Origin: Amoebophrya sp. A120 | Lineage: Eukaryota; Protista; Dinoflagellata | Assembly: GCA_905178155.1 (NCBI GenBank) | Contig: CAJINV010000001.1 | Location: 10,135,432 to 10,199,431 of the forward strand | Reading direction: 5' to 3' | Length of the DNA stretch: 64,000 nt | Shown here: positions 12,001 through 51,038 of the stretch, one piece after another | Layout of the letters: every line of letters begins with the position of its first letter | Position numbering within the stretch: the first letter of the stretch is position 1 | The notes under the pieces: model-generated | What the model was told of the DNA's origin: nothing | The model's database searches: none | The model's input: the letters and a program-made list of their open reading frames with translations, nothing else | Translations under genes and position numbers: made by a program

Positions 12001-15000
12001 TACTCGCGTGCGCAATTCAAGCGGCGGGTGGACGTCACAGCCGAGGAAGCGGAGCGGTACCAGTGGCGCGGGGTGAATGCGCGCAACAAGGTCGTTGTGT
12101 ACAGCATCGAGGTTGCAGATGCAGGCAAGTATTCGCTCACTGCACAGGACGTCACGCAGACTGCGACCTCAGTGCACGATCTGCCACTCGCGCACACGGT
12201 ACCGGACGGGCACTTTGCTGCTACTCTCGGGCAGGCACAAACCTACCTGCAAGACCGCAGTGGGGTACGAGTGAAGTACTTGTTGTACCTCGGGGAATTG
12301 CTCTCGCAGAAGTTTTGTCCACGGTCGCAGAGTCGGGACGATGCTCTTCTGGTCGTGCCACTGTATGAGAGTGCGGCGCGGCCCGACGATGCTGGCAATC
12401 AGCCCGACGATCCAATGTCTGGCAGCGCCCAACATCACGAAGAAGCAGCCTACAAGGGTATCGCTAACGTTCTGCACCGCGGGATTTCTTCGCGAGCTGC
12501 TATACGCGCAATGGAGCGCTTCTGGTGCCGCGGCGAAGCGTCCTCATCGATTCTGGATGAATCTTCCACGGTTACACGCCGCTTCATTCGCTTTGACGTT
12601 CCCGCTGTAGCAAGTTCCAGCGCGGACCCAACCGGGGAAAGCACACTGTTGCTGCACGAACCGTCAGTTCTCAGGATGGCGTTTCTGAGCAAAATTTACC
12701 AGCAGAACTTCTCCCCCCAGGCTGAACACGACCTGGACGAGGTGCTGCCTCTGTTTGTGCAACCTGAAGAGGTGGAGCCAGGCAGCAGTAGTGGAGCCGG
12801 TAAAGATTCTGTGCAGAACGCAGGAGCACAGAACAATAAAGCCAGCGGCTCAGCTTTGTACGCCGGGCTCCACACGACAAGCAGGGAGCTCGCGCTTTCC
12901 CCCGCAGTGGAAGAGGCTATGGGTGTGTTGCAGGAACAGCAGCGCCGGTTCTGGGAAGTGGAACAACAGTTGCTCCAGAACAGCCACGCGGTGCAGCTGC
13001 TGCTGCAGCGAAAGCTTGCCGCAGCACACGAGGCTGCGAAGAAGGACATCGATCAACTTGTGAAGGTCCTAGAAGAGCTGCAGAGCATTACTGGTGCGGC
13101 GCCCGACTCGGTCGTGCCGCGTAATCACCCGATCTGGGGTACTTTAAGAGGCGCCATTACATCCGGAGTTCAAGCTCTGGACGATTTGCACCGGCAGCGT
13201 CAGCTTTTTGCAGTGGATCGATCGGCGGGGGTTGGCGACTCAGTCGTGATAGCAGAGTACCATCGTGATGCAACGAATGGCGGAGGGAGTTGGCAGGGGA
13301 CGCTCGGATGGGTCCGAAAATGCACGGTTGTGATGGACGCTGCTAGCGACGGCGGCAGTAGTGCACCGGACGGGGAGTCATCTTTTGCGGACATGCTGAC
13401 GCCAGTAATCGGTTCTGTCACGATGCTTGGACAAATGGAAGCAGCCTCGAAAGCCGCACAGATCAAGGACGTCGAGAAGAAAGTCAAGCTTTCCGAGGAG
13501 AAGTTGGAGGTAAGTCGACAGATCCTCGCGACCCTCACGCCTGCTGGCGCCGCGATTCGGGAGACGCACGAGGTCCAAAGAAAAATGCTTTTCACGGAAT
13601 TTGAGCAGTCGGTCCAGGACTTTGTAGCCAATAAAATCAGAAGCACGACGAGGCAGGGTGGTGGCATCCCGCAAGGTGAGCAACCCACGGATGAGATGTG
13701 GAAGTTCGTGATGGGTTTCATTCAACCTTATGTTGCGGAACTGGGAGAGTTGGAGGAGCGGATTAAGTTCAAGTACTGGCAACAGAAAAAACCAAAAGAG
13801 GATGAAGCTGCTGCGGTGAAGCAGGAGGCTGAGAAGATACTTCAAGAAGCAACCAAGCTCAATGAAGAAATGGAAGGCAAGATTATTGAGGAAATTCGGA
13901 ACCAGCGCCTTGGCGATCCTGACGCCCCGGTGACGCCCGACGAGCGCGCAGACATTGAGACTGGACCGCACGGCGCCAGTATTCGTGCCATGAAAGAGGA
14001 GCAAAAGCAGGCGGCGCTCCGATCAGAGGCTGCGAATACAAAGCTGAAGTCGATTCAAGACGAAGTGAAGCGGATGATGGAGCAGCAGGATAGAGAAGTG
14101 AACGAAGCAAAAGCTACAAGGCATGCGCTTTTGGCTAGTGCGGAAAGGACAATCGCGAGGAGGAACGAAAATGCGAATAGGCTAGCGCAGGCACAGTGGG
14201 ACAGCATTTTGAAAACAAAAGTGACATCGGCGAAAGGAAGCGCGAAAATCAAGCAGTTTCTGACCGATCCATCGTTCGGAGGCTTGCTCGAGGCGCCGAT
14301 CTTTTCGACAGGACGCGTTGCGGTAGAAGGGGACCCGGACATCGCAAATCTCATCTCGAAGATGAACACGGCGCTGACCGTGCAAAATATCCAGCAAAAG
14401 GACGAGCACGAGCGCGCGCTAGATGACTTTAGTACAAAGCTTTCGACCGCGGTCTCGAACTACAACGCACGAGTGAAGAGAAAGGAGGAGGAGAAACGAG
14501 AGGGAATGCTGCAGGCACTGGCGCTGTTGCGAAGGGAGGAGCAGGAGCTCACAGCCAACCCATTGGAGCAGCAGTGGTCCGCAGTTCAGACCCAGCTGCG
14601 GAAGCAAGAGAAGGAGGACTATGGATTCGATGTGAAGGGGCGGTTTGTGTACAAGGAGGAGTGCCACGTAGAGGTGCGCAAAGTGTCCGCTTCACGCGTC
14701 GCCAAAGCGGCCAACAATCCCATACCGGAACAGTACGCTGGGGCCACGGAGGGGGTGAGTGGCGTGTTGGAAGATTCGGACGAGAGCGGGGAAATCCTCA
14801 TCGTGCCGTCGCAGTTGCTCAGCAAAAACAAACTGCTGCTGCGGCGACTCTGGGAGCTGCGCTTGCTGCAGCAACGCACGTTCAAAGCCAAGTCGCTGCT
14901 CCGCGACGCGCGCAGCGATATGGTGGAGTCGATGGCATTTCGCGAACGTTTCCTCGACTTGCCCGCGGACGACTTCCGGCACCGTCCGGGCGCGCTCGAG

Positions 15001-18000
15001 GCCGTGCGCACACTGGACGGCCGAGGAATGTCCGAACGGGGCACGATCGAAGACGTCGTAGACCCACTGCACGTCAGTTTTAGCTCCGATGCGCCGCTGT
15101 CTGGCGGACTGGGTCTACCCTCGCGTCTGGACGTCGCCGCATTTCCGTTTCACGCCTCGAATCTCGAGACTGTCGGATCTGCCGCGGGCCTTACCGACGC
15201 GCACCAGGCTCTGCTCGAGCGCGATCGGCGCACGCGCCGCCAGCTGCAGGAGCAAGCCGACCTGGAGCGCGCGTTGCAGAAATCTTCCTTGCGCGCTATG
15301 GAAAGGGTGTTCGCTGACGTCTTGCAAAGTGCGTCGCTCTACGAGGTGCGCGGGCAGCAGCGCATCATCGACATGGCCTTTTCCGCACTGAAGGACCTGG
15401 CCGCAGCGTCGGTGCGCGTGGAAGAGCCGCGCTTGCCCGGCCTGCCTCTTGAAACCGAGCAAGCGTTTGCGTTTGCCATGGAGCGAAGCGGTCGAGACGC
15501 CCTCGCCGCACTGAAAGTGATCCAGCCGGCGCCCGAAGACAAACAACCGGGATCCGCACGGCCGCCAGTTGTTCTTCCAGGCGATAGCTCCGCTGCATCT
15601 TCTGGTGTTCCAGTGGAAGGCACAACACCTTATCCGAGCGGCGCAGCTGGGAGTCACATGCTGCCAGCACCAGCTGTGCCCGAGGACCAAAGAGCTCCGG
15701 CGGGAGAGGACCATCGGCCATTGATTGCAAAACCAAAATCGACGTATGCGAGCGCATCTGGAACAACGGATCCAACAGGTCTTGCCAGCGTGCCGGAGGC
15801 CACGGAGCTTTCATCCACAGCGCCCGGGGAGCAGGACACGCTACTATCCGACACAGACGCCGAGCAGACCGTGGAGATTGTTTTCGACTACCTTAGCCTC
15901 GCGGATGAAGCGTCGGCAGATTGGTTCGCCTCGCAACCACTGGAGTGGCAGCGCCGACTGTCGGCCAGCAGCTTCGATGCGAACGTGATAGAGCCGGCCG
16001 CGGCAGAGTATTTGCACATGGAACGGCACGGGGAGGACGGTGGCGCAGTGCATGCGCCGTACCGTACGGACTCTGATTTCGAAAATGCTGCGACGACAGT
16101 GCAGCTCGAGCCTGTGGCGCCGGAGAATGTGATCAAGAACCTGATGATCGCAATCTCGCCCAAAAGTTCGGTGCTCAGCAAGAATGCGCCGGAATTGAAG
16201 TTGGAGGCAAAGCAAGTGCAGTTTACCGCGCATCTTCGGGAGAGCGTACGGAAGGAGCTCGAATCGGAAGAAAAGAGGAAAACCGAGTGCGGTCCAGCAG
16301 CAGGGCATGCTCCGGGGGCGGGTAAGCGCACTGCAGGCAAAGAGAGCTCCGGCTCCTCTGCCCAAATCGAGGACCGCACGCTCTGCTGGGTGCTTTCCGT
16401 TCTGCGGGAGGATAACTACCCAAACCCGCTCTTCTGGCGGAAAAACAGCGCGGGTGCAACACCGGTAGCCACAGAGGCCGAAGCGCACGTTATTGCCGCT
16501 GAGAAGATGGGGCTCCAGCTGCCCTCGCAAACTCGCCGTCGGTTCCGGGTGATGTCGGCTGCGGCTGTTTTGTCCAGTGATTACGGGGACGCCGTGACCC
16601 TGCAGAAAGATTCGTTGGAAGCTTTTCACGGCTACGTCCTGCAGCGTGCGGGCGAAGTGTACTTGTCGCTGGCTAACCCGGTGGCGGACGAGGAAAACCA
16701 GGAACCGGTGAGAAACCCGGTCCTGCAGGAAATCATTCGAAACTACCTCCCGCCAGTCTGGTGGACGCCGGAAGACCAGGCCAACATGCCGAGAGACGCA
16801 GAGATCAATACCCCGGAGCAATTGGACGCCTACCGCCGCCCCGTAGACCAAACCTTGGTGGATTTCGTTGAGACCTACTTTGTTGCGGCGCACAAAGACC
16901 TCCGCCCCGGGCGAGTATCCCCGGCAACCGGGGGTCGGCGTGCGACAATCGTGAAGGCTGTGTCAACTACAACCTCGTCGCAGCAGGAACGTGCAGAGGT
17001 GACGTTGAGCGATTTCGCACTGGATTTTCTGAAAACCGAGCTCTTTGCTTTATCGAATGTTGGCGATGGGAAGGAGAGTGCAACCGGGCGGTATGCCCAA
17101 GACGTTGGCCCCACTGTTGAATTGCTGGTGGACCGGTTCCTCGAAGCCGGCTTTAGCCTGGCAGACGTCAATCACGTTCTGCGAGAAGTGGTGCAACTGA
17201 TGACTGCAACCAGCGAAGACCAGCACATTGCGGTGCAGCAAACTTCTGAGCTCGTCAATGGAGATATCGTTTTTGGCTCAGCGTACAGCCCGACCGCGTT
17301 CACGTACTCGGCTTCTACAAAAAAGCATTTTGCGGCGCCAGCCTTGGCGGAAATCATGTCCTTGTTGAAATTGCGCATCGAGCTGGTCGTTGGGAAGGGC
17401 GTGTTTGTCGGTCAAAAAGATCTCGATAGGCAGTATGAGGACCGACGCTCTGTTGCAGCACTTCAGACACGACAGCCCCTGTTTGCGAAGCGCGACTGGT
17501 ACGGTGTCCTACGCCACATCGAAGTTGCGGGGAATTTGCTAGTCGTGCCAGAACAGCCCGAAGAAAACTCGTCCGCTGAGGTCATGTTTCTGAAGCCTTG
17601 GATTGCGGCGTATTATTCTATCGGCGAAGCGCGGACGCCTCCTGGCGTGGCGTTCGTGTGGACGCAACTGGCACAAAAGCTTACGCTATCGCAGCTTCCG
17701 CTCAGCCACATTCGGTCGCTTTTGGATCGATTGCAACACACGGGGGACCGACTAGCCGCAATCAAAACCAGCTACCACTTGCAACTTCCAAGCATCCGCG
17801 AGATGCAGCAGAAGTTCCTGCAAAAACACATCAACACAGCCTCGTCCGCACACTTGAACGCGTTTTCCGGGGGCGATGGTTTCTCAGGCGCCTATTCCCA
17901 CATGACCGGCTCCAACCTTTTCCGGGCGGGGGAAAAAATGGCCCTCGACGCGCAGCGGGATCGGACCATTTTTCGCGAGCAGCTCGCTCCGGCCTACGCT

Positions 18001-21000
18001 CAGGTACAGCGGCACTTGCCGTATCTGGCCGGGACAGTTGGTAGGGGCAACGGGTTGGAAGACTTGATTCAGCTCGTCCACTTTCTCCTGCAGCACGAAG
18101 ACCAACTGTACAACTCCGCGGACATGGAACTTGTCGTCCTGCGGGAGCAGATCGTGCTTGGTGACTTGCTTGCCCCAGTCGGCATCACTGCGGCCTCGGA
18201 CGATAGCGGTGATTTCTCTGGCAGCACGACGCAACAGGAGGACTACACGTCCGACGATGACGAGGCAAAAAGCGCCAAGGGGAAAACCGTTCGTAATTTC
18301 GCTGGGGAGGACGTGTTGCAAAGTCTTCCGACACTGGAAGCGTGTTTGCGGAAATTGCAGACCTTAGTTTTGGCGCGAGAGACTTTGCAGCTGAAAGACA
18401 AAGCCGTGCTGCTCCGCATGAACCGGCACATGGCCGACCTGCTGCGCCGCGCCCGCAAACCCGGAAAGAAAGAGAATGTCGCTTCCGCCACCGTCGCGCA
18501 CCAGTCGTCTGCACAGACGAGCAAACCTCCCGACCGTGCTACCGAGCTCCAGCAGGGACTGACAACCGCGAAAGACCTGGTGCAGGGCGGACACCAGCGC
18601 TTAGACATTGCGATCAGTCGTTTCGACCCTCTCTCGATGCGCATGCTGCTGCAGCCGCAATTTCAAACGGTCATCGAGTCCGGCTCCTCCGCAAGCGGAC
18701 CCAGCAACCAGGTCCAGGGTGCGTTCGCGCAGGTGCAGCATGCGCTGGGAGATTTGCTGGACCAGCATGGCCAGCAATTCAGTGCGGTCCGCCAGGTGGC
18801 GCGCCGGCAGCTCGGCGCGGAGCTTCGGCGGCAAACCGCACAGTGGTACAACCGACTGAAGCACGCAGCCGCGACCGAAGTCCCCAACGTGTACCAGCAG
18901 GCGCAGGAGGGCGAGACGAGGAAATCAACGAACAGGTTTTCTCTTGACGAGGGGGACGTGGCGGTCGCTGCAAGTGGCTCCTCGAGCTCGTCGCCCGACA
19001 GTAGCGTCGAGGGCTCGGGGCTTGCCTCCCCGCCGCAAGGCCCCGCGCAGTCCTCGCCCGCGGGCAGCAGCGACATGGAAGTAGACGGTCAGGGCGGGGG
19101 GCTGCAACAGGGGAAGCAACCGCGGCCCAAATCTTTCACGTTTGGCCGTGCCTCAACATCCGACGGCGCAGTTTCTGGGGAGAAAGATCCCGCTGCCTTC
19201 GATGAGGGTGGGGGCGGTAGCGCTGCCGCGCCGCCGGCCCGACAGCGCGAAGTCGTGTTTGCCACGCTTGAGCCGATCGTGCAAAGTGTGTACTTGGAGA
19301 TTTTGGCAATGCTGAACCAGTTCGGAGTGCCGCCAAAGGACTTCTGGCGCAGCCTGCATGGGAAGTGCAACGCCTGTGGGTCGTCGAGCGCCGAGGCCGA
19401 GCAAGACGAACACCAGGGCGCGGCAGCGGGTGCGTCCTCGCATGAGCTCCAGCCAGTCTCAGCGGGGTTACCAATGCCAGTCGTGGAAGAAAGTCCTGAG
19501 AACTCCGAGGAGGAGAAGCGGCAGGAGGAGCAGGACATGCGGAAAATTGCAAGTCTGCGTCAGATTCTACAGAAGGTGGCGGCCGACGTACACGAGAATC
19601 GCGATTCGGACATTGACCGGGTCATCCGCGACCGTCTCCTATCCGAGATCACCGATTTTTTTGCCCGCAAGCTGGCGACCTACTGGCTGACCTTGCGCAG
19701 CTTTGAGCCGCACGTGAGCATCACGACCGATCCAAAGGCGTGGTTCCAGTCTTTGTTGAAGGTGTACCCACGCAGAAGCCGGGCGGAGATCCGTCGCGAG
19801 GAGGCAGAGCACTTTTTTCTGTTGCAGAACAAAGAGGAGGGCGTTGCGCGCCAGGCGGGAACCGAGCTCTTGCGGTGCACGTTCGAACAGATTCAGCACA
19901 AGGTGTTCATCTCTCCAAAATCGCCGGATAGCAGTTTGCGGGACATCCTTCAGGACTACCGGGAGCGCAACCCGCCGCAGCAAAAGATCCGTGCCAAGGC
20001 GGGCGCCGTGGAAAAATTGAACGCGCAGATGTTGAACCAGGATGGCAGTCCCATCGGCGAGTTCTGGACCAGTCTGTCCAAACCCGTCCAAGACGTCGAA
20101 CTTTTGGACGGCGTAGCGCACCTGGCGGCTTTCATGGGCTCGGCCTTCGACACAGGCACGGAAAATGCAAAAGCCGCACGTGGACTCTCGCAGCGGTTGC
20201 TGAATCAAATGGAAAGCGGTCGCCATGTCCGCAGTCTGAATCTCCTACTGTTCCCCTCTCCGAGTCCGACCACAAAGAGCCTCGCGGGTGTTGGCCCTAG
20301 TGCTTCTTCTCCCGTACAAGAACATCGAGCGAGTTCGAGGGCCTACCCCACCGACACTGTGGCACCTGGATCTGTTCCACCTGTACCACAGCCGCAGCGT
20401 GGTGCATACGTCCCCGGTCCTGCCGCAGGCTCCGTGGCGGAACAGCCGTCGAAAAGTTATCTTCCTGGATCATCTGCCCCCGCACAGCAGCCATCGAGGC
20501 AATATCTTCCTGGATCTGCGTCCGCGCAGCAGCCGCCCAGGAGCTATCTTCCCGGTTCAGCAGGGCAGAAGGCGCCGAAGAGCAGCTACCTACCTGGTTC
20601 TGTCGTTGCAGCCTCGTCTCAACCCTACCTGCCGGATTCTGCTTCAGTACCTCCGCCACCTTACGGCAGCGCAGGGATTTCTGCTGTGGTGCCATTACCG
20701 AAGCCGGCTGCAGTGGGCGCACCCACCGCTCGCACTACAGTTGTTCGCGATACAGGAGTGCTGGAGGAAGAGGATCCGGAGATGGAAAAAGGTCTTGAAG
20801 ATCTAGAGCGCCCAGCCAACAACGTTCGATTTTACGGGTTCGCGCAGCTGCTGCTCGGCAATGCGGAAGACCATGTACGCAAACAAGCGTGGCAGCAGCT
20901 CTTGGAGCAGCGCCAGCAGCTGCTGGTCGATGCCACGCGTGACAGCATGGGCATCGGGGCCATCGATTGGACGAGTGACACGCTGGTGGACGAGGTCGAA

Positions 21001-24000
21001 CACATGGCGCGGCCGGAACTTCCGTGGCAGAAGGACTCGTACAAGCGCACCCGCATCGAGGGCGAAGTGGAACAGTTTTTCTTCGAGGTCTCGCAAATGC
21101 TGTTTGGCTTCGACGAAGAGTGGGACCGGCGCGCGCACGAAGAGTGGCCCCCGCACGGCGCGAATCTTCTGGCTAGTGTGCAAAACAAGCTGCACGCGGA
21201 CGCGCAGGCCATTCGGGACTACCTGCTGAAAAAGGAAGAGGCTGCATTGATTTGCAGGGACAACTTCACGGGAAATGTCGCAAAGAGGAACGATTGCTAC
21301 CGCAAGATTGTGTCGGAGATGGCGGAGCAAAAGCATCCCCTCGGGGAACGGTGGCGGCGCTTCGTTGCGCAGCAGGTGCGGCAGAAGCCGTTGGGCTTGA
21401 AGCTCATCGGTAACTATCTCTGGAACTACCGCTATATTGCGGCCCGCTTTTTCCTCGGCGAGGGGATTCCAGTGACGGTATCCGATGCGGAAGTGGCCGA
21501 AATTATTCAAGATCAACAGACTGGTCCTGAGTCTGGTATTGCTGCTTCCAGCGCGGCGCAACAGGGCGCATCCCAACAGACGCAGACTAGTGCCGTTGTT
21601 TCGGCCTCGTCTCTCGGGGTTTTCCGTCGGATCGCCACCTGGAACGAGTTCGAAATCCAAAATTGGTCGAGTGACGTGCGCACCCGCATCGCGCCGGTCC
21701 TGCGGCAGATGCTTGCTGAGAATCTGGCAAAACTGGATCTCCTTTTGTCGGAGCATTTTGCGGAGAAACGCACACAGGATGTTGGCGGTGAGAATCCGAA
21801 CGACGCTAACGCCGAAGCTGCGGGAAAGCATTTTATGGATGATGCCATGGAGGGCGAGTACACTTTTGTTCTCACGTCGCTGCAACGCTATGACCCAAAA
21901 ATTGCGGAGGAGAACGAAGTTTGGAAAGCGCTGCTCCCTCCGCACGACTTGAAGTTGTTACAGGAAAGACAGGAGAAGGCAACGCGAGCAAACGATCGGG
22001 ACCAGCGAGAGCCTGACTTCGAAGATATCAGCAAACACCGAAACCACAGGGAGCGCGCGCGCTGGCAGCGTGCGCAGGCCGTCGCCTACCGCGGAATCAG
22101 CACGGCGCTGCGCATGTACGAGAAGCTCACGGTGCAAGCCTTGCAGGTATTCAACATCGGTTTGAAAGAACAGCGTGGCTTCATGCTGCACTATGTTCAA
22201 CTTCTGTCGCTGGTCGAAATCCTTGGCGCCCACTGGGAACTGATGCGACGGGACTTTCTCGGCTTTGCTAGCTATTCCGTTGATCCGCACCTGGAGATCA
22301 AAGACCGGCACACACTACTCGCACTGTACAACGAGCTTACTACTCCTGCGGAACAGGCTACGCGAAGCCACTACGGGAAAAGATCGTCCAAATCACCGGA
22401 ACAGCAAGTAGACCCGTTCGAAGCAACACGCGGCCGCGGGCTGCTGCTGCAGGTGGCAACTGGCGAGGGAAAAACCGAACTGCTTGCCGGTGTGGCCACC
22501 GTGCTCGGCTTGGTGTTTTTGAAGAAGATTGACATCATGACCAGCAGTCAGGTCCTGGCGGTCCGCGATGTGGAAAAGAACCGTAGTCTTTTTGACGCCT
22601 TCGCCTTGCGCACGCGCGACAACACGCACAAAGCCGGGGAGCCGAAGACCGGGGCGCGCAGCTGCTACAAGGAGGGCGAAGTCCTGTTCGGCGATCCCTC
22701 AGATTTCATGTTCGACGCCTTAAAGTCCGAGTGGTACGCCGAGGGCACCACGGGCACCCGCTACGGCGCCAAGTACGCGGCCAACGTCGGGGAGGGCAGC
22801 AAGGACCGCAGTCAATCGGCGCGCGAGTTCTACGAGCAGCACGGTGAGCACTTCCCGAACGCCGCGGAGAAGCTGTACCTGGAAGAAGGCTTCCTCGTGC
22901 TCCCGCGGCTGCGCCGCAAGTTCAAGCTGTACATGGACCACATTTTGAAACAGCAGGTGAATGTCTACACGCACCTCAACGAGGGCCGAGGGCGGGAATT
23001 CAAGCCGCCCGATTCTGCGGAAGTGTATCTGGACAAGCAGGTAAAGTCCGGGGAGTACGTGAATCCGGATGCCGTCCTGTCTGCGCTGGTGCATCTTTCC
23101 CGCGGGCGCGGCGAGACGGGAAAAGGCCGCCGCCGGGAGCTGGACTTGGATCCCTTTCAGAAGGTGGGCCCACCGGGAAGCAAAAAGTTTAACGAAGCGA
23201 GTTTCCAACAGGTCCTCGACGAGCCAGAGAAGATTTTCGAACAGACACAGAAAGACTTCGCCACGGCGCTCGCGCGGAAGCGGGTGGCCGTCGCGATGGG
23301 GCGTTTGGATTTTGGATTTGACAACGTTGCTTTAGCCGACGAAGTGGACATGATGTTGGTGAACGACCTGTCCCGTACCGCCAAAGTCGCGACGCCGTTC
23401 CCGGGTGCGGAGTTTCTAGAGCCGATTTACCACGTGCTGAAACTCGAAATGGACAAGTTTCAGACGCGCGTGCTCCCACTGACCACGACGAACGCCAGCG
23501 GCGCGAGAGTGCGGAAACACATCCTGATGTTCGGCGACGTGCTGCGGCGCTTCCAGGACGAGAAGGACCCTGAGATCGAGGCAATCGAGTTCCAGGCGGT
23601 AGCGAAGCACGGCCAGCCGGTCACCATGCGGGTGCCCGATCTGTTGGCGCAGGTTGCCAAGCCCGGAAATACGGTCGGCGCGGACATGTCACCCGAGCCA
23701 GGAGCGCAGAGCAAGGACAACGCGTTGGAAGAGTACCTGCTCCGCTTTCTGGAGCGCGCGATCGAGTGGCGCTCCGAAGATATCCAGGCCGAGACCGCGG
23801 CGAAAGAGGGGGCGGAGAAACAGGAGCTCGCGCAGCTCCTGGCAAAGTTGCAAGATGTTGGACTCTCCGAGGAAGACCGCATGATGAAGCGATGGTACGA
23901 AGAGCAAGGCTTAGAATGGTCCCCGGGAGTAGATGAGAGCAAGACCGAGGATGACGATGTTGTTGATATGAACGTTGACGAGGATGGAAATACTACTAGA

Positions 24001-26065
24001 AATCCAAGCGGTTCCGGTAGTTCTAAGCCGAAGCTGCGAAAAGTTGCGGTCGAAGACAAAGAGGATTTGTTGTTTCGGAAGACACCCGTCGAGCCTAAAT
24101 TGCTGGACGAGCTTCCCTTCCTAAGCAGCGGTTGGGGACCGGTTCTGGATGCAGAGTTCCGGAAAGAGCAGGAACGCGTTGAGAAAGACCGTTTGCAGGC
24201 GGCGAAAAACCGCGAGAAAGGACTCACATCCGTGCACGGGGCCAGCCTCGTCCGCATTCCGAAGCACTGGGAGCGACATGTTAAAGATACTCTCCCGCGG
24301 CTGGTGAAATCCGCGCTGCTAGCGTATTTCACGTTTCAGGAAAACGTGGACTTCATCATCCAGCACGAGCGCATCAAGCCGGTGTCGGGCGCGACCGGGA
24401 TAACTCAAGAGTCGCTGCACTGGTCGGATGGCATCCATCAAATCCTGGAGGTGATGCACGGGCTGCCGGTCACCCCCGAGTCGCTACCAACAAACTTTCT
24501 GTCCAATTACGCGTTCTTCCGGCGTTATCGCTACGTGTACGGTGTCACGGGCACACTGGGCTCCGCCGCAGTGCGCAACTCCTTGCAGACTTCCTACCAA
24601 CTGCAGAGCCGCATCATGCCCTTCTCGCGTCGGAAGCAGTTCCTCCCCTACGCGCCAGAGTTGATTTCTCCTGAAGTAGTCCGGATGGTCTCGTCGCAGA
24701 GCCGCAACGCCTTGACGGCAGCTTTGCCGGCTCCCGGGGACGACGACGAAGGCTCGCAACAAAAGCACAACGAGGACGAATCGTCGGACGAGCTGGTGAA
24801 GCAGACGCAATTTTCCTCCCAAGAAGCCGAAGCGCTGACCGGACTGCTGACGCAGCGGGACCGGTGGGTCACGCGTGTGGTTAACAATGTGATCACCGAG
24901 CTTCAGCGGGATCGCGGTGTTTTGTGCATCTGTCAGAACATCGAGGCGGCAGAGCTGATCGCGAAGGCGTTGAAGCAGCAGTGGGATCCGGATCGGGTGC
25001 ACGAGTACATGCGGCAGAGTAACGCGGACGTGGGGAGCGGCGAAATGGAGCCCTTCCAGAGGGGCATGGTGATCGTCTCGACGAACCTGGCCGGTCGGGG
25101 CACGGACTACGACACCACGGCGATTGAAAAGTACGGCGGCCTGCACGTGGAGCTCACCTTTCTGGCGGAGTCGCGGGAGGAGGCGCAGGCGCTGGGGCGC
25201 ACCGCGCGACAAGGGAAAAAGGGGACCGGCCGGACCACGGCCATGCTGGGAGGCAGCTTCCAGGAGCAGGACGTGTTTGACGCGAGCGCCGGCACTGACG
25301 CTTTTGTCACTGGTCTGGTGAACAGCCGCCGTGCGCACAACCAGCAACTCGGCGGCGGCGGTGCGAAAAGTACTGCTGAAAGCGACATTCTGTCCAGGGA
25401 CCTCACGACCATTTTCGATGAACTTACTAGCAGCTTGGCTTCGTTGCAAGAAAAATTGCGGAAACTGAATAAATCAGAAGATCAATCAGCGGCCGCTCCG
25501 TTCTCGCTGTACCACGGTGCCCGAGGACTGTTGAGCACGCATGAAGGAACCGCGTTAGTGCCAGCTTCTGCAACTGACCAAAGAACCGCTCCGGATGTTG
25601 TTGGTCTTTCCAGCACCAATGCACTTGCGAATATGGTTGCTGGGTGCGTGCTGACAGCTTACATGGACCACCACCAGAAGAGTGGCTTGCCCAAAAATTC
25701 TCCTGGTGCGCCACAACCTCCAGCGTCTTCTGCTAGTAGAGCAGCTACAACGGCGGTGCTTACAGTGGACCCTTCGGCATTCGGTAAAATCGCAACGATG
25801 AACGAGAACCTATTCCTGTCGCTCGTTTCTCACCAGCGCAAGCAGGAGTTGCACGGGCGAGCGTGCCGGGTGAACCCGAAGAAGTGCCTGGAGCGCCACC
25901 ATGCCCGCGCGGAAGCCAGTGAGAAGCAGCGTTTCGATGATTTCGAGCAGAAGGAGCTGGTGACCATCAAGACGCAGGATCTGCTGTACAGCACGTTTCT
26001 GTTCGAGTATCAGACCTTCCGTTCAAAACTGGCACAAGCCTTCGACCTGAAGTCGAAATCTGGCG
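1..26065 (+). CDS. Giant protein, first exon in window (5'-incomplete); contains OTU-like segment and SecA-like ATPase
   Basis: Frame of ORF 97..26073 is also open from base 1. Its TGA (26071) lies inside the left inverted repeat of an intronic element. Contains SecA motifs QVATGEGKT, DEVD, WSDGIHQ, GVTGT, STNLAGRGTD, GGLHV, GRTARQG. Confidence 0.9.
9460..10170 (+). other. OTU-like (deubiquitinase-fold) segment, probably catalytically inactive, split by insertions
   Basis: KNGLFDAVAHQL resembles the OTU Cys box (DGNCLFRAVAxQL) with Cys replaced by Gly. Downstream LREQV and FDAYLDYVR..AEGDLEALAAAEIYRLPIYLY resemble the OTU YxxxMxxxxxWGxxxExxAxxxxYxxxIxVY block. Recognised by eye. Confidence 0.5.
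20404..20643 (+). repeat. Six degenerate (S/Q/A/P)Y(L/V)P(G/D)(S/P) peptide repeats in a P/S/Q-rich linker
   Basis: AYVPGP, SYLPGS, QYLPGS, SYLPGS, SYLPGS, PYLPDS in the translation; DNA tatcttcctggatc recurs. Confidence 0.8.
22170..25240 (+). other. SecA-like SF2 ATPase domain embedded in the giant protein
   Basis: Ordered SecA motifs: HYVQLL, QVATGEGKT (Walker A, ~22450), IMTSSQVLAVRD, FGDPSDFMFDALK, ADEVDMMLV (~23335), ENVDFII..TG..HWSDGIHQILEVMHGL, FFRRYRYVYGVTGT, GVLCICQNIE, VIVSTNLAGRGTD, GGLHV, QALGRTARQGKKG. Confidence 0.92.
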
Positions 26066-26387
26066 TATTGTGAGGAAAAATCCCCCCTCCCCATACCAAA
26101 CCGGGACACTTCTGAAAATTTGTGATGCAGATTTGAGACCACAAATCGTCGCTGTATTGCATGAAGGCAAGTCTACAGGCTCCGCCACATTCTACAGGCG
26201 GTTTGTCATGCTGTTGCTCCTACAGCGTAGACGTCAGCCATGCTAAGTGCCTAGGCCAAAACTTGTCTACTCAGGCCTGATCTGGGCCTGCAGTCCTCGC
26301 CAACAAGACAAATCTGATCTGTGGCCTCAAATACAGCATCACAAATTTCGTTTTCGATATGGGGAGGGGGGATTTTTCCTTACGATA
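26066..26387. mobile_element. TIR introner / MITE-like non-canonical intron, family A copy 1
   Basis: TIR tattgtgaggaaaaatcccccctccccata / tatggggaggggggatttttccttacgata. Direct repeat tggcg at 26061-26065 and 26388-26392. Removing 327 nt fuses the two giant ORFs in frame (KSKSG|GAQAG). Second copy at 62928-63254. Confidence 0.93.
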
Positions 26388-26392
26388 TGGCG

Positions 26393-29300
26393 GAGCGCAA
26401 GCTGGACACTATTTCCAGAAGGCCGTCAAGGGGCTCGCGGGCGCCGGCGTTGGGGGACTCCTCGGGTTCGGGGTCCTCGCGATGGTTCTTGGAATCGCTG
26501 CCGCCCCCTTTGCGGTAGCCGGCGCAATGACTGCGGCCGCCGGCTCGGCGATTTTCGGCATCGCTGTCGCAGGCGGTGTCGCAGCCGGTGCGTACGGGGC
26601 GTACTACGGATCCACGCAGTTGCACAGCACCGACCCGACCGAGAAGATTCGCGAGTTTAACACGCTGCAGGCCATCGCGGAGCGCTGGGCCCTGTTCCTG
26701 GACCGCTCGCGGGGCATCTTGCAGGACGCTATCAGCGCCGCCGAATTTCGCGGGGAGCTGGTCAACGAGCGTGTCGCGCAGGACGAGGCGCTGAAGCGGT
26801 ACGAGCAATGGCTGCAGGAGCTGAAGTGGGACTTCGAGGGCAAACCAGAGCGGCCCTCCGAGCTCGAGAAGGCGAGCGAGCTGGAAAAGTTCCGCGGCAA
26901 GGCGCTGCTCGGTCACGTGCGCGTCCCGGCGGACAGTACACGGCAAAACAACGGCGCGCTGTTTCACTACTTGGCCGCGCAGAGTTCTTCCGCATTGTTC
27001 GACGAGGAACTTCTACAGCAGCTGAAGCCAATCAACGTGGAGGACACGCAGGCAGGCCTGGTGATCGCCGGCCAGAGCGTCGTGCCGGTGCAGGGCAATA
27101 ATCCGGACCATCCCGTGCACAAAAGACATGTGACAACCGAAATTACGTTGCCCGATAAGGTGGTGTACGGCCGACGGGCGGACTTTTCGGAATTTCTGGG
27201 CATGCGCGCGATCACGAACCCGTTCTACCACACGCAAATCGGCATGCTGTGTCTCGACGCGTACCGAAATGACCCTTCGTTTACCCTGACCAGGAATCTG
27301 TGGTCCTGGATGATCTGGGACTACTACAAGCTGCCCATGCGCCACTTCGAAATGGCGATTTGGCTGGACCCCGTGTTTGCGGGGCCGGCCTACATGGGGC
27401 AAGCGTGGTGGGCCGCACAGAAGGGGAAACACGACTCCAAATCGGACCTAAAGCTCACCCTCGAGCGCGCCAGTTTCGGCATTCAGAAAGAAGTGGAGAT
27501 GCGCGAATTCCTCATCCAGGTGACGCAAGGCGCGATCGACCGCAAGTGGGAGCAAACGAGTCCCCGCCCCGCGCAACAAGGAGAAACAACGCGCAACAAG
27601 ATGACAAACGATCCACTTGCTGCGCAGTTGACCACGGCCGAAGCTGCGCACGCGGGGCTGGAAAGTCTAAAGCGGAAGCAGGCGGTCACCAGAGCGTATC
27701 TCGACGCTATTGACAGCAACATCCGAGAGATCGAGGAGACGGAGCGCCTGCTCGACATAACGGCCCACCGTCCCGTGGAACCAGATAGCGCTGCTCACGT
27801 TCTCGCCGTCGTCGATCATTGGGAGGTGCCGCGCGTGCTGAAAGACTGGGGCGAGAAAGATAAAACGTGGAACGAACATGCGGGATTGCAGGAACTCGGA
27901 TCACTCGGCGACTCGCGCACAAAATCCGTCTTCGGGAAAACATTTGTCGAACGGGAAGACGAACCGATTCCCGGGGGCGCACAACCAGAGCAACAGGCAA
28001 GCAAGGGTGTTCTGGGCGGTATCGCCTCTTTCTTGGGTTTGTCTGGCTCAACTGCAGCCGGAACAGCATCAACAACCCAGGGTCACGCGGGGACGATGGT
28101 CAATGCACCGCAAAAACGCTATTTGCAGGAGAATGAATTTCAGAAACACACCGCTCTTCCCAGATCCGCGGCAGACATGCAGCTGAGCGGTCGCCCTAAC
28201 GTCGGTCGGAAGAAGTTGTTTGACCTGCGCGCACGCGGCTTCACCACCTACGAGGACGGCGGGATGACGTGGGACCAGGCAGAAACTGCGCTGACCCAGT
28301 GGCAGAACAACGCGGTATACACGCCCACCCAGGGAACGATTCCGACGGTCGTTGTGGAGCCGGAGTTTTCGGACTTCAATGACTTCAGTTCTCTGCTGCG
28401 TGGGGACCACGCCCGCGGTGCAGGGGACCGCAGCCAGGTCCAGGACCTGGGTTTTGAAGAGTTGCGGGCCAAGCTCGCGGAACGGCAGAAGCACGAGAAG
28501 GAATGGGCGGCGAAATGGTTCGGTGGTTGGCGGCGCAACATGCACAATGGCGAGGCGTGGAACAGCATGCATCGCGCCAAACCAAATGAGGTTGACCGGG
28601 CGGTGAAAAGCATCCACATCTCGCACTGGCGGGAAGTGTCCGATATGGCGGTGGCGTACAGTTTTGACCTGGAAGACGAGGACGACAATGACATGCAGGT
28701 TGACGCCGGCCGCGGTTCTGGTACACCCGGGCAGCAGCAGGGCGATGGTTCTTCCCTGCTTCGCACTGGCACGCGGCGCGTGCGGTTCGACGCGACGTTG
28801 GATTTCAGCTCATTTGAAGAGGCTTTTGCTGCGCTCAACAAAAACGCGGAAGAGTGGTCGAGCAAAGCGCACCGGTTCACCGTCGAATTCAACAAGGGGT
28901 CAGAAGGAAGCACTGGAAGCGTTGATGTGAACAGCGTGAACAGCTTTCACTACGACTTGACCTTTGAGCCGGCTGACACGGGCGACTCGGTCCAGGCACT
29001 GCAGCTGCTCGGCATGGCCACGGAGCCGCTTGCCTTCCCCCTTCCCGAGATTTACCGGAGCGAGAAAAACTTCCGGGGCGTGCAGGCGGTCACTACCGAG
29101 CAGGGCGGGTCTTCCGCGACCACTCCCGCTGCGGTGGAGCAGGAAGCACAGAAGCAGCGCGAGCACTTCTGGGAGGAACGGGCGAAGTACGTGAAGAAGC
29201 TGGTGCGCGAAGGTTTGCCGGGTATCGGAAAGATTGACGAGCGGAAGGACTTCGCTTTCGCACCGCCGGGGGGCAAAAACGAGGTGGTGATCCACAACAA

Positions 29301-32300
29301 ATGGAAGCCGCGCGCCGTGGACGTGGAGTTCTCCGTCGTCTCCGATGTAGAATTACAGGCTTTCTTCTTCGATCAAATTGCACAAAAGGTCCTGAAAAAA
29401 GCTGAGGATAGCCAACGCGCGGAGTGGGAAATGTTGTTGAAACAGTTTGCGACTGACGAGCCAACCGAAGAGGATGATGAAAGCGCCGGCGGAGGACACA
29501 CTGGTGAGAGTTTTCTGAGCACCGCAGGAGCAGGACCACGTCAGCCTGCGCTTGAGTCTCTCAGATCAGAGTTGCATCAGCGCTGGCTGGTGAGTAAGGG
29601 CATTTTGCCGTCCGCGCATCGTGTTTTTGCTCTTGAGACGGTAACGGACTTCATCAAAAGAGCGTGGAGTCAAACGGAAATGGAGCAGGCGTTCAACCAG
29701 GCCAGAGCTGCGGTAGAAGCGTCTTTGTTTCATCACGAGGTAGTTGCCGGTGCTAGTTCTTCTACGCATATCCCAACTGCCTGGCGCCCGCGCATTCGCT
29801 TTTTGGAGGATCCCGAGCGACTGATCGGAAAGGGTGTACAATCTGACCCGACGGACCGCTTCACCAAATTTCGTGTGTTGGACGGAGCCGAACGCAAGCG
29901 TAGTGTCGACCGCACCGAGTACGAAGACAGGTTGGGATCGGGCGAGGCAGCTGCCCGTCTGCCAGTGGAGTATGAAGAGCATCCACAGGTGCGGATCGAG
30001 GCGTTCCAGTCCTGGGACGGAAAAACCATGTACAAGCGGAAGGAAGTCACGCGGCACGAGAAAAAAACGGCCCTGAAGGCCGGGGAGACCATGGTAAAAC
30101 GTAGGCAGAGTCCTCTACAAACCGATCTGCAGTCCGCCGAGAGTCGTAGCCTCCAAAGTCTGACCGCCTTGCTTGGTGGTCCCAGAGCTTTTCAGGATTT
30201 TTACGCGATATTGCTTCTGGACGGAAGTAGAATTAGCAAAGGTAGAACCGAGAACAGCAGCTCCTCCCTTAACGCAGATGAAGCAACTTCGGGCAGCGGA
30301 TTCCAAGCTTTGCGCGAGCTTTGGTCAGCGGAAGTTGACCAGGACCTTGAGCCAGAACTGAGAGCGGTGGAGCTGAAATTTGTTGGTGACAACGCCGATC
30401 CGGCTGCTGATGTGGTGATGGCGCCGGCGGAGGACGAACTACTAAGCGGTCAACAGGAAGACGACGAAGCCGAAGAAGATGAAAACAAATTGGTCGCGTT
30501 GGACCAGCCGGGCGCGACAGTGCCGGTGTCTGATTTGCTTCGAGGCTCTGGCTACGAGTTTGAGCATGGTCTTTACGCAGACATTCAGGCGGAGAAAGAA
30601 GCGCTAGTTGTGGCGGTCCCGCATCAACAGGGCGGCGCGGTCGTTCCAGACGCACAAACCGCGGCACACCCCCAGGAACAAACCAGCGGACTTTCGGAGG
30701 AAGACTTGCGAAAGAAAGAGAAGCAAGAACGCGCACAGCGCAAGCGCGAAGATCTCGCGCTGGCGCGTGCCAAACAGCGGTTCGTGCGACAGTCATTAGA
30801 GGGCCTGCTGTCCGTGCGGAAGGTGAAGAAGAAACTGATCGGACCGGAAGTTGTCGAAGAGGTCGAGGAGCGCTACAACCCCTACGTTCTCTCCTCTTTT
30901 ACGAATTCGAAAGCGAGTGGGGATCACTACCGCATCCGGTTCCAAGGTGTGGACGCCTCCGTAGCGCAGACGCTGATCGCGTTTTTGGGGAAGTCGCTGC
31001 TTGGCGGACCGGAAGACGCCCGGATGCATTTGTACAGCGTTCTCGAGGCTGCGGGCTTGAAGCCGCAGAAGGACGGCAGTTTGCAGGATCCAGAGTTCCT
31101 GCGACCCCTCCGCCGGGATTTGGCCTTGCTGCACGAAAAGCAGGAGCGCGCGCTGCGCCACAGCTGGACGGAGAAGATTCAGTTGCTGGAGCAGGAGCTG
31201 CGCGACGAGGTGCGCAACTCCGCAACGGCGGGGGGCCGTTTCACCGCGCACCACAAAAACCTGTTGCGGCGCCAGGCGGAAATGCAGGAGCACGACTTAG
31301 CGGAGCTCAACGCGGTGCAGGAGCGCGAGCGCGGTGATTTGGACTTGTTGAAGAAGTCCCTACTCGACAAGGTGGTGTCCTACGTGGAGGAGGAGCAGAG
31401 TCAGTCGGTTGACCAGCGTCCCGCGCCGGCCTACATGGACAAGCAGCGCATCTCGATGACCCTGCGGGGCTGCGAACCCGCGCTGGTTGGCTTGCTGCGG
31501 TGGAAGTCCTCAGAAACCACGAAGGAGCGCGAAGTCCTGTTGGGCGACGATGGCCTGTTCGGCGACGACCGCGCACTCGCTCTTGCCTCGGAAAATGGCA
31601 TGGACGCAGAAGACGCAGCTGCGTTGCAAGCCGCACGCGAAGAGGACCACGGCCTGGAAGACGAAGACGGATCTTCATCTCGCTCGGAAGACGCGATGCC
31701 GGGAGACCAGATTATCGCGCCAAGTCGAACGGCGAAGCACCTCAACGCGGACCGCGACCCAACCGCCTTCACGAAGGAGCTCAGCACCGACTTCGCCGAT
31801 CAGAACGACGCGCTGGTGTTTGCCGACCTGCACTTCACAGGCATGCAGTGGGCCGCTGTGGATGGTCCGCAAAGAGACCTGGTGTTGCGCAAGCTACTAC
31901 TGTTCTCGTTAGACTCAGTTTATGAAGAGACCAGTCCCACGGCGGTCGGCGAAGCTAGCCCCCGGTTCTCCGTGGGAAAGCCGGCGAAACCAGATGGGAT
32001 GATAAACATGCTAGCCAGCATGTTTGCCGGGCTGGGTGGAAAAAGTGCTGGCGAAGAAGCTGGCCCTGGCAGTTCGTCTGTTGACCAACCGTCTGTAGTT
32101 CAGAGATCGCGAAGCGAACAAGCGAGACAGAGCTTTCTCGCTTTCCAAGGGGAGGGCGACGCGCAATTCCCCGAGCAGGACGTCGTACTCTCTCCAGCCT
32201 TGCAAGCCGAGGTGATCAAGCTGCTGCCTGCCGAGGCTCAGGAGGCCGCGAGCAGTGATGCCGACGCGGTCGGGCGTGTTTTGCTTCACAATCTTCGGGA

Positions 32301-35300
32301 GCAAGAGAAGCAGCGAAGTTTGGTCATCGAGCGCCCGCAGGCGGTTGATTTAGAGGACAAAGCCCTTTTGCGTGCCTGGCTCCGGAAAAAATTTGCAACT
32401 GATGGAGAGGAAATGAAAATCGAAATGACTGGGAGGTCGAGTCTCCTCAACGTGCCACAGAACGTGGACCCCGCTGTGGTTGCGCAAAAACAACAGGCAG
32501 ACGTGCAGATGTCAGCAACCGGTTCTGAGGGTGATGCCCCTGCTGCGTGGGAAGAGGAGAACAAAAATGGTCTCTGGACGGCACTATGCATGGACGATTT
32601 TCTCTATGCTCCACCGGATCGCTTGTATGTGTACTTCTGGGAACTGAGTTTTACCAAGAAAGCGGAGGAGCGGTCAGGCGAACAAGCCACTGCTGCCAAA
32701 CACGAGTCGAATGATCAGCAGCGCGTTTTGTTCTTCGAGACCGAGGCCGGATTGCGTCGAGCGCTAGAAGAATTCCAAGGAGGTTCTTCCTCGTCCCCGC
32801 AGAAAGCGAGGTCACGAATCCACGCAAGCCGCCTTGTGAAGGTTCTGGAGGACGAAAATCTGACCAGTGTCGCGCAGCTAGACATCGGGATGAAAGAGGC
32901 CTTGCTGACGGACGCGATGTTTCAGCGGCACCGCGAGCGCCAAACCGTGGAGTACGTGGCCATGCTGGAGCAGCAGCACTTTCCGCGAGAGGCCGCGCTC
33001 GAAGCCAAAAAGAGAGCGGCCACCCACCCGGGGATGGACGGATCGAACGTTGCCGTGTTTTTCGACGAAGCGCAAAAAGCAGAAGACGAGGGCTACGGTG
33101 AGGCAAAAGTGAAAAAGATAGAAGCGGCGGCCGCGAAGCACGGGCAAATGGTGGCCGGTGACGAGCGACAGGCCCGGCTCAGTGCCGTCATTTTCGTTTT
33201 GCAGGAGAAGGCCCGGCTGCTCCTGCAGCAAGTGGAGGACAATTTGCAGACCGTCTCCAACGAGGTTGACGCAGCATTGGTCGTCATGAAGAATGAAAGT
33301 GGCCGATCTCTTCGCGGGCTCGTGGGACAAGAACAAGTGCCGGAGCAAGAAGTACATGCTGACTTCGTGCCACCGGCGGAAGCAGGAAGCGCGGGCGGGA
33401 AGAACAGTGGCAATACACCAGCGGAAAGAGGAGCGTCGAGTCTGCAAACTCGTATGGTTCGGTTACAGTCTCGGCTTCGGGCGTCCGCAAGGGAGGCGAC
33501 GGTGCAATACCGCAAGCACCTGCGGACGCAAATTTCCCTAGGGGTTGGTGGGAACAGCCCCGCATTTTCGCTTGCCAAGGTAGAGGCGCACCCGATCCTG
33601 ACCGGAGAGGAGCTCGGCCCCTCGACTGGAACGGCCGAAACCATTGCCGGCTGGTGGGACACGAGCGTCAGACCGTACGCGGATCTGAACCACCTGGAGG
33701 CCGTCCGTGACGTTGTCGTGGACAATTTCCCCTGGACGGACAGGGAGCTAGCGCAGCAGACTGGTGAGCCCTATCCGAACTGCATGAGCGACTTGCGGCA
33801 GCTGCGAGAGAAGTTGTTGCTGCACACCGCTCTGGATGCCAAGGCGCAAGAGGCTGTACACGCGGTGCAGAAGCGGATTCGCGACGAGAAGGAAGCGCAA
33901 GAGCAGCAGCGCATTGAAGCGGAGGAAGCGAAACTACAGGCTGCAAAGGACGCAGCGCAGAACGGAGCTAGTGCAAGCTCGGGACAACAAGATGAACCTG
34001 GTCAGGGGAAGGAAGACGACATCGTCATGGTTGATGCGGCTCCTGATGTGGATGAGTTTGATGTTGAGTCAGAGGATGAGGAGCAACGCGAAACGGACGA
34101 GCTCTACGGTTACCGCGGAGGTCTCCCTGGTGACGATAAAGGCTCCAATGGGAGCAAACCAAAAGAAGACCCAGCGCCGTTCTCCAAAGGCGGTAAGCAA
34201 GGCGGGAAGTCGAAGTTGTCCGGTGCAGCAGGACATGTTTCCTCTGCTGGCCGCTCAACGCGTGCTCCATCTTCCGCTGCGAGTACCTATCTTGCCGACG
34301 ACGACGATGATGACCTCGAGGTATCTTCCGACAACTTAACCGCTGCTTCGGAGGAGGAAAATGAGTTGAGGACCTCACCAACATCGGGACGACCCCAAGC
34401 ACGCGGTTCTCCTGCTAGTGCAGCAAGAGGTCCGGCAGCGGTCGGCACTGCGGGACACCAGCCTGTTATCGTCTTGTCGCTAGCGGGGTTGACGGAGGAG
34501 GCAATCCGAACGGCGGCACTCAAAGGTGAGGCGCATGCGCAGCGGCTGCGCGAGATGCAGCTGCAACTGGCTCGTCGGGGAAGTGGCCTCGGGGCGGGTC
34601 CCAACAAGGAATACGAGGAAGATTCCGAGGCGGGTGAGAACGAAAGCAGCACGGACGGTGGTGAAGAAGAAGAAGTTGACATCAATCAAGTCTGGGAGGA
34701 GGAAGTGGGAAAGTTTGGCGTTCCGAAAGCGTTATACGAGCGAATGAACGCGGAAGAACGGAAAGCGTCCGTTGAGGCGCACACCAACGCGCAACTCGTG
34801 CGAGAAATTTTTGGCAAAGTCTCGCAGCAGTTGGCGACCGCGAAGAGCAGCTCGGTTGACCAAAACAATTACAAATTGCCGAAAAAGACCTTCTTCAGGA
34901 GCCAAATGACAAGCGCGGCCCAAACCGCGGTGGCGAAGACCCAAAAACTAGTCCGGTACCTCCGCTGGGTGGCGCCGGGGGATAAACCAACCTTCACGCT
35001 GCTCTTCCGGGATTTGGAACAACAGGTTCTGCGGGACGTGATTTACCGCTTTTCGTATGGCCGCGGGGCCGTTCACGGCGCGCTGCACGAGGAGAAAGTG
35101 GATCTCAAAGAGGTGTCCTCGCTGAAGTCGCAGTGGCTCGCGAGCGACAACCTCTACGGCGAGGACAGCTCGCGCGCGCGCGGCATGGAGTCGCAGCTGT
35201 TGGAGTCTGGCGTTGTCTCCTCGACCGGCGACGCCAACGCGCGCGCCGCCCTGCAAAAGCACTTAGCGTTGGCCACCAGCAACCAGCCGCTGACTTCGGA

Positions 35301-50992: not shown

Positions 50993-51038
<46 letters not shown>
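50993..51038. repeat. (TAAG)11 microsatellite
   Basis: Eleven perfect taag units followed by ta. Confidence 0.97.

Follow-up and report, generated by a model that had tools for sequence, protein, structure and literature searches.

The window analysed here, 64,000 nucleotides (nt) of Amoebophrya sp. A120 (contig CAJINV010000001.1, positions 10,135,432 to 10,199,431 of the forward strand), encodes a SecA-like motor on its + strand (22186..25242) within a giant protein. By its sequence, the motor belongs firmly to the so-called "eukaryotic secA" clade and not to canonical SecA; the window holds a real, apparently intact variant of this described family, of extreme size. With a probability of roughly 0.45, we propose that it is a SecY-independent, polypeptide-pulling motor, tethered to membrane segments of its own protein and probably delivering the C-terminal part of that protein. 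The motor would grip an unfolded protein chain and push it at the expense of ATP, the pushed chain probably being the giant protein's own C-terminal part. The chain would enter or cross a membrane via the protein's own hydrophobic hairpins rather than via SecY, and the giant protein would serve as an effector in conflict with a host or a competitor.

SecA is commonly presented as SecY's partner. The family discussed here is large, spans animals, protists, fungi, and intracellular bacteria, carries a SecA motor for which no channel is known, and regularly receives the wrong annotation "protein translocase SecA". The predicted scaffold and finger of the motor and the toxin-immunity layout of some relatives point to a concrete and testable job, namely SecY-free protein translocation. 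The copy in the window belongs to a dinoflagellate parasite, and the public gene model reduces it to a fragment of 614 amino acids (aa).

A SecA-type motor outside canonical SecA

A preliminary description of this DNA reported preserved Walker A, DEVD, GVTGT, TNLAGRGTD, and GRTARQG motifs, and all of them are found where it placed them, in a single frame. The motor opens with a Q motif (22186-22206), followed by Walker A (TGEGKT, 22459..22476), the Walker B strand with DEVD (23323..23349, DEVD itself at 23338), WSDGIHQ (24421), and motif III (GVTGT, 24541..24555). Motifs V and VI (25081..25215), with the ribose Asp, the Gln, and two Arg fingers, comprise TNLAGRGTD at 25081 and GRTARQG at 25195. 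With a DEAD-like Walker B and the Arg fingers, the SF2 motifs I-VI of SecA are complete. The nucleotide-handling residues of Bacillus subtilis SecA are Q85, K106, D207/E208, D492, Q521, R525, and R528 (PMC9926265), and every one of them has a counterpart in the window motor. Going by these motifs alone, the ATPase activity would be intact. The motor occupies residues ~7400-8420 of an open reading frame (ORF) of at least 8690 aa, a position that the preliminary description does not mention.

Profile searches place the motor with SecA but at a distance from its canonical form. The Pfam families SecA_DEAD, SecA_PP_bind, and P-loop_SecA all score above their cut-offs, and the preprotein cross-linking domain (PPXD) is present (PF01043, 30.2 bits against a cut-off of 23.5). 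The NCBIfam SecA models give at most 98 bits against cut-offs of at least 725, and the whole-protein canonical score is not reached (TIGR00963, 81 bits against 800). All 25 matches to solved structures are SecA. Among columns conserved in the family (≥90% in 106 rows), the window agrees at 58 of 70, and of 29 diagnostic columns 20 resemble the family and 2 canonical SecA.

A SecA fold with a clamp is predicted for the motor. In the AlphaFold model (45 rows; predicted local distance difference test, pLDDT, 67) the core is confident and most of the inserted sequence is of low confidence. The preliminary description had suggested superposing such a model on SecA, and its best structural match is substrate-engaged SecA 6itc_A (Z 24.6, 3.7 Å, 488 residues). 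DEAD-box and other SF2 cores also align to the model, at Z up to 20.0, which could suggest an SF2 nucleic-acid helicase or translocase merely resembling SecA. This is very improbable: SecA comes first in every search, by sequence and by structure, the first non-SecA match in Foldseek has an E-value of 1.8e-3 against 1e-15 for SecA, and a PPXD is present. The better match to another SF2 family that would have overturned the preliminary description thus did not appear.

Phylogeny, also suggested there as a check, puts the motor outside canonical SecA, in trees that hold no plastid or cyanobacterial SecA. FastTree, run on 147 rows, puts the window next to P0107 and P0123, within a family group of 107 rows (support 93). 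In an IQ-TREE analysis of 41 of these rows the family clade has support 100/100, and the window groups with P0005, P0008, and P0014 (a rotifer) at 100/99. The approximately unbiased (AU) test rejects a grouping of the window with canonical SecA (p 2.9e-21). That the motor is an ordinary plastid or bacterial SecA with a SecY partner, or a contamination, is thus already largely refuted and almost certainly wrong. Matches to SecA profiles favour it, all far under the canonical cut-offs; against it stand the tree and the AU test, the position of the motor behind 7400 aa in a eukaryotic, introner-bearing context, and the loss of the plastid and its import machinery in the genus Amoebophrya, reported for A120 as well (PMC7789003). 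The preliminary description also pointed out that no secY is visible in the window; none was found as far as the window was scanned with Pfam and further searches, but this is uninformative in a eukaryotic genome.

"Eukaryotic secA" genes are a clade of their own, separate from prokaryotic SecA, and have been transferred into Wolbachia and Amoebophilus (Duplouy et al. 2013, PMC3639933). The clade is mentioned in PMC5062602, PMC9203015, and PMC3482391, and a SecA DEAD-like protein is listed for Legionella fallonii (PMC4256840). The available portions of PMC8163844, PMC3113570, PMC9111745, PMC7397232, and bioRxiv 2026.03.19.712371 contain nothing on the family. A search with the motor core gives 2738 matches among 7993 scored candidates. 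The best 120 of these, where named, come from rotifers, a tardigrade, insects, Folsomia, nematodes, ciliates, glomeromycete fungi, and intracellular bacteria, with a few bins under other labels. A representative library yields 564 proteins at E-values up to 1e-30, with two further A120 paralogues at the top. Among bacteria, long copies are found mostly in Rickettsiales, Legionellales, Cardinium, and Chlamydiae, and three of five bacterial genomes tested have canonical SecA and long family copies together. A phage collection gave only five weak, partial SecA-type matches, and a single-protein viral scan gave no family member.

Three groups of relatives deserve separate mention. The A120 paralogues, P0133 and P0134, lie on other scaffolds, and the gene model of P0133 also leaves out the site before DEVD, which may point to a shared insert mis-called as an intron. 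Bins with the labels Methanobrevibacter and Saccharibacteria also contain family genes (L005, L019), which may be mis-binned eukaryotic or endosymbiont DNA. Short SecA-like proteins of 770-1070 aa from Mycoavidus, a Neisseriaceae bacterium, and a chlamydia (L053, L042, L094) branch between canonical SecA and the eukaryotic clade.

Tail, membrane segments, and toxin-like tips

Downstream of the motor, the coding sequence continues past a short introner into a second ORF (see the next section), and the window shows the tail order of the clade: a long helix, an E-x-x-W helix, a TPR-like region, and a hydrophobic block, all on the + strand. The conserved part of the long, scaffold-like helix lies at 25918..25998 (family profile, E 4e-6). 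A glycine-rich hydrophobic hairpin (26449..26568), outside the family profile, probably takes the position of the SecA wing. It is followed by a helical pair resembling the two-helix finger, with a conserved E-R-W (26656..26835, E 0.002), which is the best match in 28,024 residues including reversed controls. The TPR-like helical region of the family (27205..27807, E 1.4e-8) precedes the hydrophobic, membrane-hairpin block (35350..35646, E 1.4e-6), which an insertion displaces by ~2500 aa downstream; it lies ~3350 aa after motif VI, against 415-885 aa in the 12 of 18 near relatives with the marker. A second glycine-rich hydrophobic stretch (41101..41307) matches Pfam DUF6861 at 31 bits against a cut-off of 28, a match that may be compositional. 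Of 147 long-tailed relatives, 139 carry a hydrophobic segment no more than 1000 aa from the motor, and the finger motif is present in 104.

What the tail elements may be is suggested by a compact relative, L001, for which NBD2 and the tail were modelled with AlphaFold (pLDDT 76). Residues 1-304 of the model superpose on B. subtilis SecA 352-775 (297 aligned, 3.6 Å), 22 of 28 SecA rows in the comparison reach the finger, and the SecA finger tip, Y743 (PMC9926265), lies within the superposed range. The family tail model was searched for its fold as one whole, so the comparison barely probes the TPR and membrane parts. The superposition skips ~127 SecA residues, which are probably mainly wing; on this model the family motor would lack a wing. 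The preliminary description recognised neither wing nor scaffold in the C-terminus. For the wing this agrees with the model, and the Pfam wing and scaffold families do give no match in the window; the long helix and the finger-like pair, in contrast, indicate that scaffold helix and two-helix finger appear to be retained rather than lost, with only the wing missing.

Retention of clamp, scaffold, and finger, as it seems from the models, would also suit a motor that docks on the Sec61 channel of the endoplasmic reticulum, the eukaryotic SecY homologue, and imports its own chain or other proteins after translation, and bioRxiv 2023.11.21.568195 proposes self-export for the SecA domains of bacterial giant proteins. 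Sec61 docking is nevertheless improbable. The family finger is ~10 aa shorter than that of SecA (W-to-F median 23, n=50, against 33 counted in L084), the tip tyrosine has no counterpart in the 12 family fingers viewed, and the PPXD, which in SecA is seated on SecY (PMC9926265), is heavily expanded in the window.

The C-terminal tips of relatives vary strongly, falling into 34 groups among 39 complete ORFs; eight of the original 47 were dropped as short or very AT-rich, and some eukaryotic ORF ends may be intron borders, which affects the grouping. A WHH nuclease tip occurs in three of the 47 complete loci, and a SUKH gene follows two of these (2 of 19 downstream ORFs scanned). Among the best 120 proteins, in a selection made by precomputed domains, five end in toxin-type tips (CdiA_C, Ntox50, WHH, Tox-HNH-EHHH, Ntox46) and two in a C-terminal OTU domain. 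The nearest long relative, P0135, has a lysozyme tip, the only one in 13 long near relatives scanned. L081 and L082 are 92.6% identical over 3418 aa, the last ~140 aa being unrelated and each accompanied by an overlapping small ORF; a SUKH gene overlaps behind the WHH tip of L082, and the corresponding small gene of L081 is unnamed. The L081 tip and its small overlapping gene are a candidate for a new toxin-immunity pair. Judged by sequence, the layout of a polymorphic toxin is thus present in some bacterial or phage relatives; we found no publication linking this layout to the family, within a partial coverage of the literature.

Two of these arrangements can be located precisely. The swapped tips sit on near-identical SecA-like proteins of 3555 aa on IMG/VR contigs (L081:15275-16167 and L082:15270-16239). 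In an endosymbiont of Peranema (L016:10973-12854), a SecA-like protein with a WHH tip is followed by an SMI1/KNR4 gene.

A membrane-anchored ATPase that remodels or senses proteins by pulling on them within the parasite cell, in quality control or innate defence and with no cargo delivered to another cell, is a serious if unlikely alternative. It would fit the OTU, UBA, DnaJ, TPR, and ankyrin domains of relatives, the paralogues in A120, the patchy expansions in animals, and the missing toxin tip of the window protein, yet it leaves unexplained the nuclease tips with SUKH genes, the swapped C-termini, and the 34 tip groups. A bolder form of the delivery hypothesis, which we consider doubtful, extends it to the whole family: an unrecognised class of self-delivering polymorphic effectors, whose wingless motor, with clamp and finger and no SecY, would thread their variable C-terminal cargo through their own membrane hairpins, and of which the Amoebophrya version would be a weapon of at least 14,000 aa for invading or killing the dinoflagellate host.

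Several observations weigh against self-delivery without SecY. The literature examined holds no measurement of activity or substrate for any family member. The window deviates at 12 of 70 conserved family columns, the arginine of the SecA PP-loop (R327 in PMC9926265) has no counterpart in the window or in the family alignment, and the window branch is long (1.23), with a sister group that differs between FastTree and IQ-TREE. As to the tail, a profile-profile comparison with the SecA scaffold is not significant (probability 0.8%), the finger match in the window is weak (E 0.002), and the assignment of scaffold and finger comes from a relative's AlphaFold model, which may itself owe something to known SecA structures. 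With one or two hairpins, the protein may have an anchor and no pore, and a signal peptide cannot be judged because the 5' end of the gene is open. No toxin tip is recognised in 44 of the 47 loci, nor in the window protein as delimited here, even with the probable exons that follow; Atlas searches with two C-terminal pieces of the window protein gave no match, which shows neither novelty nor absence.

A probable single, inflated gene and its surroundings

An ORF of 8690 codons, open at its 5' end (window 1-26073), carries the motor at its 3' end. We read this ORF as exon 1 of the giant gene (1..26064, +; 8688 codons, 5'-open, first ATG at 97), whose N-terminal ~7390 aa have no Pfam, NCBIfam, family-profile, or BLAST match. 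The ORF stop is held by a high-copy introner with terminal inverted repeats (26066..26387). A 5-nt direct repeat stands at 26061 and at 26388, 327 nt apart, and removal of the element preserves the frame into exon 2 (26392..42288, +; 5299 codons, no stop). The terminal inverted repeats, direct repeats, and repetition in the genome agree with the definition of introners in PMC7789003 (3-5-nt direct repeats), where they are described as normal introns of the genus. A second copy of this introner family, 76% identical, lies at 62927-63254 of the window.

A profile built from 69 family tails matches, in this order, ORF1 aa 8639-8674, ORF2 aa 100-463, and ORF2 aa 2993-3583, with no match in reversed or shuffled controls, and the mapping across the introner was repeated with 18 near relatives. 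Because the family tail elements are collinear across the introner, the two ORFs very probably form a single gene of at least 13,987 aa, joined by splicing. A probable GT-AG intron in phase 0 (42289..42620, +), a probable exon 3 (42621..42988, +), and a large inverted-repeat element with 5-nt direct repeats (42989..46434), whose excision leaves the frame intact into a probable exon from 46435, would extend the gene further. The introner joint has no RNA coverage, three raw RNA runs having matched only 0, 0, and 1 reads. Among the pieces listed from two runs that are presumably RNA, one identical 230-nt contig covers 34388-34617, with no splice joint; it is not used as evidence.

These features could also suggest a decaying or non-functional copy, in which relaxed selection inflated the gene and the introner stop truncates the protein. 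The long branch of the window, the in-frame stop within the introner, and the lack of any spliced read are on its side, although the RNA runs gave next to no coverage. We regard decay as having little probability: 8688 and 5299 codons are free of stops and strongly biased in codon use, the catalytic residues are all kept, and the introner is of a kind that serves the genus as normal introns and leaves the frame intact on excision.

Inflation is evident within the motor as well. The expansions listed in the preliminary description are borne out: ~200 aa before DEVD corresponds to a ~188-aa insert in NBD1 (22762..23325; partly helical, largely of low model confidence), the enlarged preprotein-binding region between DEVD and WSDGIHQ lies between two connecting strands (23377..24510), and the insert after GVTGT is an acidic, low-confidence stretch of ~63 aa at the start of NBD2 (24643..24831). 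Within the preprotein-binding domain, an additional part rich in beta structure lies at about 23470-23685 and an acidic, disordered insert at about 23926-24246, and another low-complexity insert of ~200 aa separates NBD2 from the scaffold helix (25291..25915); all are on the + strand. Across 119 relatives, counted where the motif patterns matched, the spacing from motif I to II is 292 aa in the window against a family median of 104 and a maximum of 125 (n=83), from motif II to W 362 against 163 and 312 (n=63), and from motif III to V 180 against 119 and 129 (n=77). The motor spans 912 aa, against 431-628 aa in those 64 of another 112 representatives that have the complete motif set, and no relative among 80 metagenome loci has comparable inserts. 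As spacings and span exceed those of the family, the inserts are real and unusual.

Six blocks of the partial public model CAD7926421.1 (614 aa) are identical to the window, and the model treats the inserts as introns. This reading was rejected, and the inserts are taken as coding, because they share the in-frame codon bias of the core, contain stops in the other frames only, and because the public model loses the Walker B strand. Rather than a new function, the inserts most likely represent surface expansions that are tolerated and that belong to a general, 2-4-fold inflation of the protein; since the whole protein is inflated, those in the motor need no special explanation. The preliminary description made them its headline and read the motor as an active ATPase repurposed away from SecY. 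Repurposing is probably right for the family, given a SecA-type motor with intact motifs, outside the canonical clade and in a plastid-less genus. The inserts are no sign of it, because the repurposing is old and family-wide and the motors there are compact; they are specific to this lineage and not the cause of a SecY-free role, which makes them the least informative part.

The rest of the window holds further features. The element at 42989-46434 is 3.4 kb long, has 55-nt inverted repeats, contains a nested inverted-repeat element of 760 nt (44574-45337), and is possibly an autonomous or composite introner. Coding stretches on the + strand at 46435-46908, 47085-49193, 49846-50829, and 51453-53741, with no database matches, could belong to a separate gene or supply further exons to the giant one. 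At least five tandem 78-nt (26-aa) repeats lie within coding sequence at 48162-48629, an inverted repeat pair at 49111-49515, and a TAAG microsatellite at 50993-51038. A NIPA/EamA-like transporter gene in at least two pieces (55005-57118; Pfam matches below cut-off) is followed by two ORFs with no Pfam or NCBIfam matches (58026-61748), one short motif of which may be CorA-like.

Comparison with known systems

Like canonical SecA and SecA2, the window motor has the NBD1-PPXD-NBD2 fold, the nucleotide-handling residues, the clamp strands, and a predicted scaffold helix and finger. Unlike them, it belongs to a separate clade, probably lacks the wing, has no C-terminal zinc tail, and is embedded in a giant protein with membrane segments. 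We know of no SecY partner for a motor of this type.

Polymorphic toxin systems (PMC3482391, PMC3113570) combine a toxin tip with an immunity gene, an arrangement seen here in L016, in L082, and in the swap between L081 and L082; the window protein differs in having no recognised tip or immunity gene. SecA domains without wing and scaffold occur in bacterial giant proteins, for which self-export was proposed (bioRxiv 2023.11.21.568195, PMC8195603). These giant proteins of Omnitrophota and actinobacteria and the effectors of Amoebophilus (PMC3482391) resemble the window protein in placing a SecA motor in a giant protein with membrane segments, with self-export or an effector role proposed. They differ in being bacterial and in carrying many recognisable enzymes, and they are likened by description, standing outside the trees presented here.

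The closest known counterpart is the "eukaryotic secA" clade itself, whose members (wBol1_1091/1092, insect, Daphnia, Tetrahymena, and Amoebophilus genes; PMC3639933) are likewise long proteins with a central SecA domain, and with which the WO-phage "SecA" (PMC5062602) is counted. The window groups with clade members from Wolbachia, Cardinium, arthropods, rotifers, and ciliates and has the tail elements in common with them. Spurious introns in gene models, as in CAD7926421.1, are also described for this clade in PMC3639933. The window protein differs from the clade in its extra hydrophobic hairpin, in an N-terminal region that is not shared, in a motor span of 912 against 431-628 aa, and above all in size: at least 13,987 aa against a median of 2647 and a maximum of 4326 aa among 112 representatives, and more than twice the longest relative found, which has 6427 aa.

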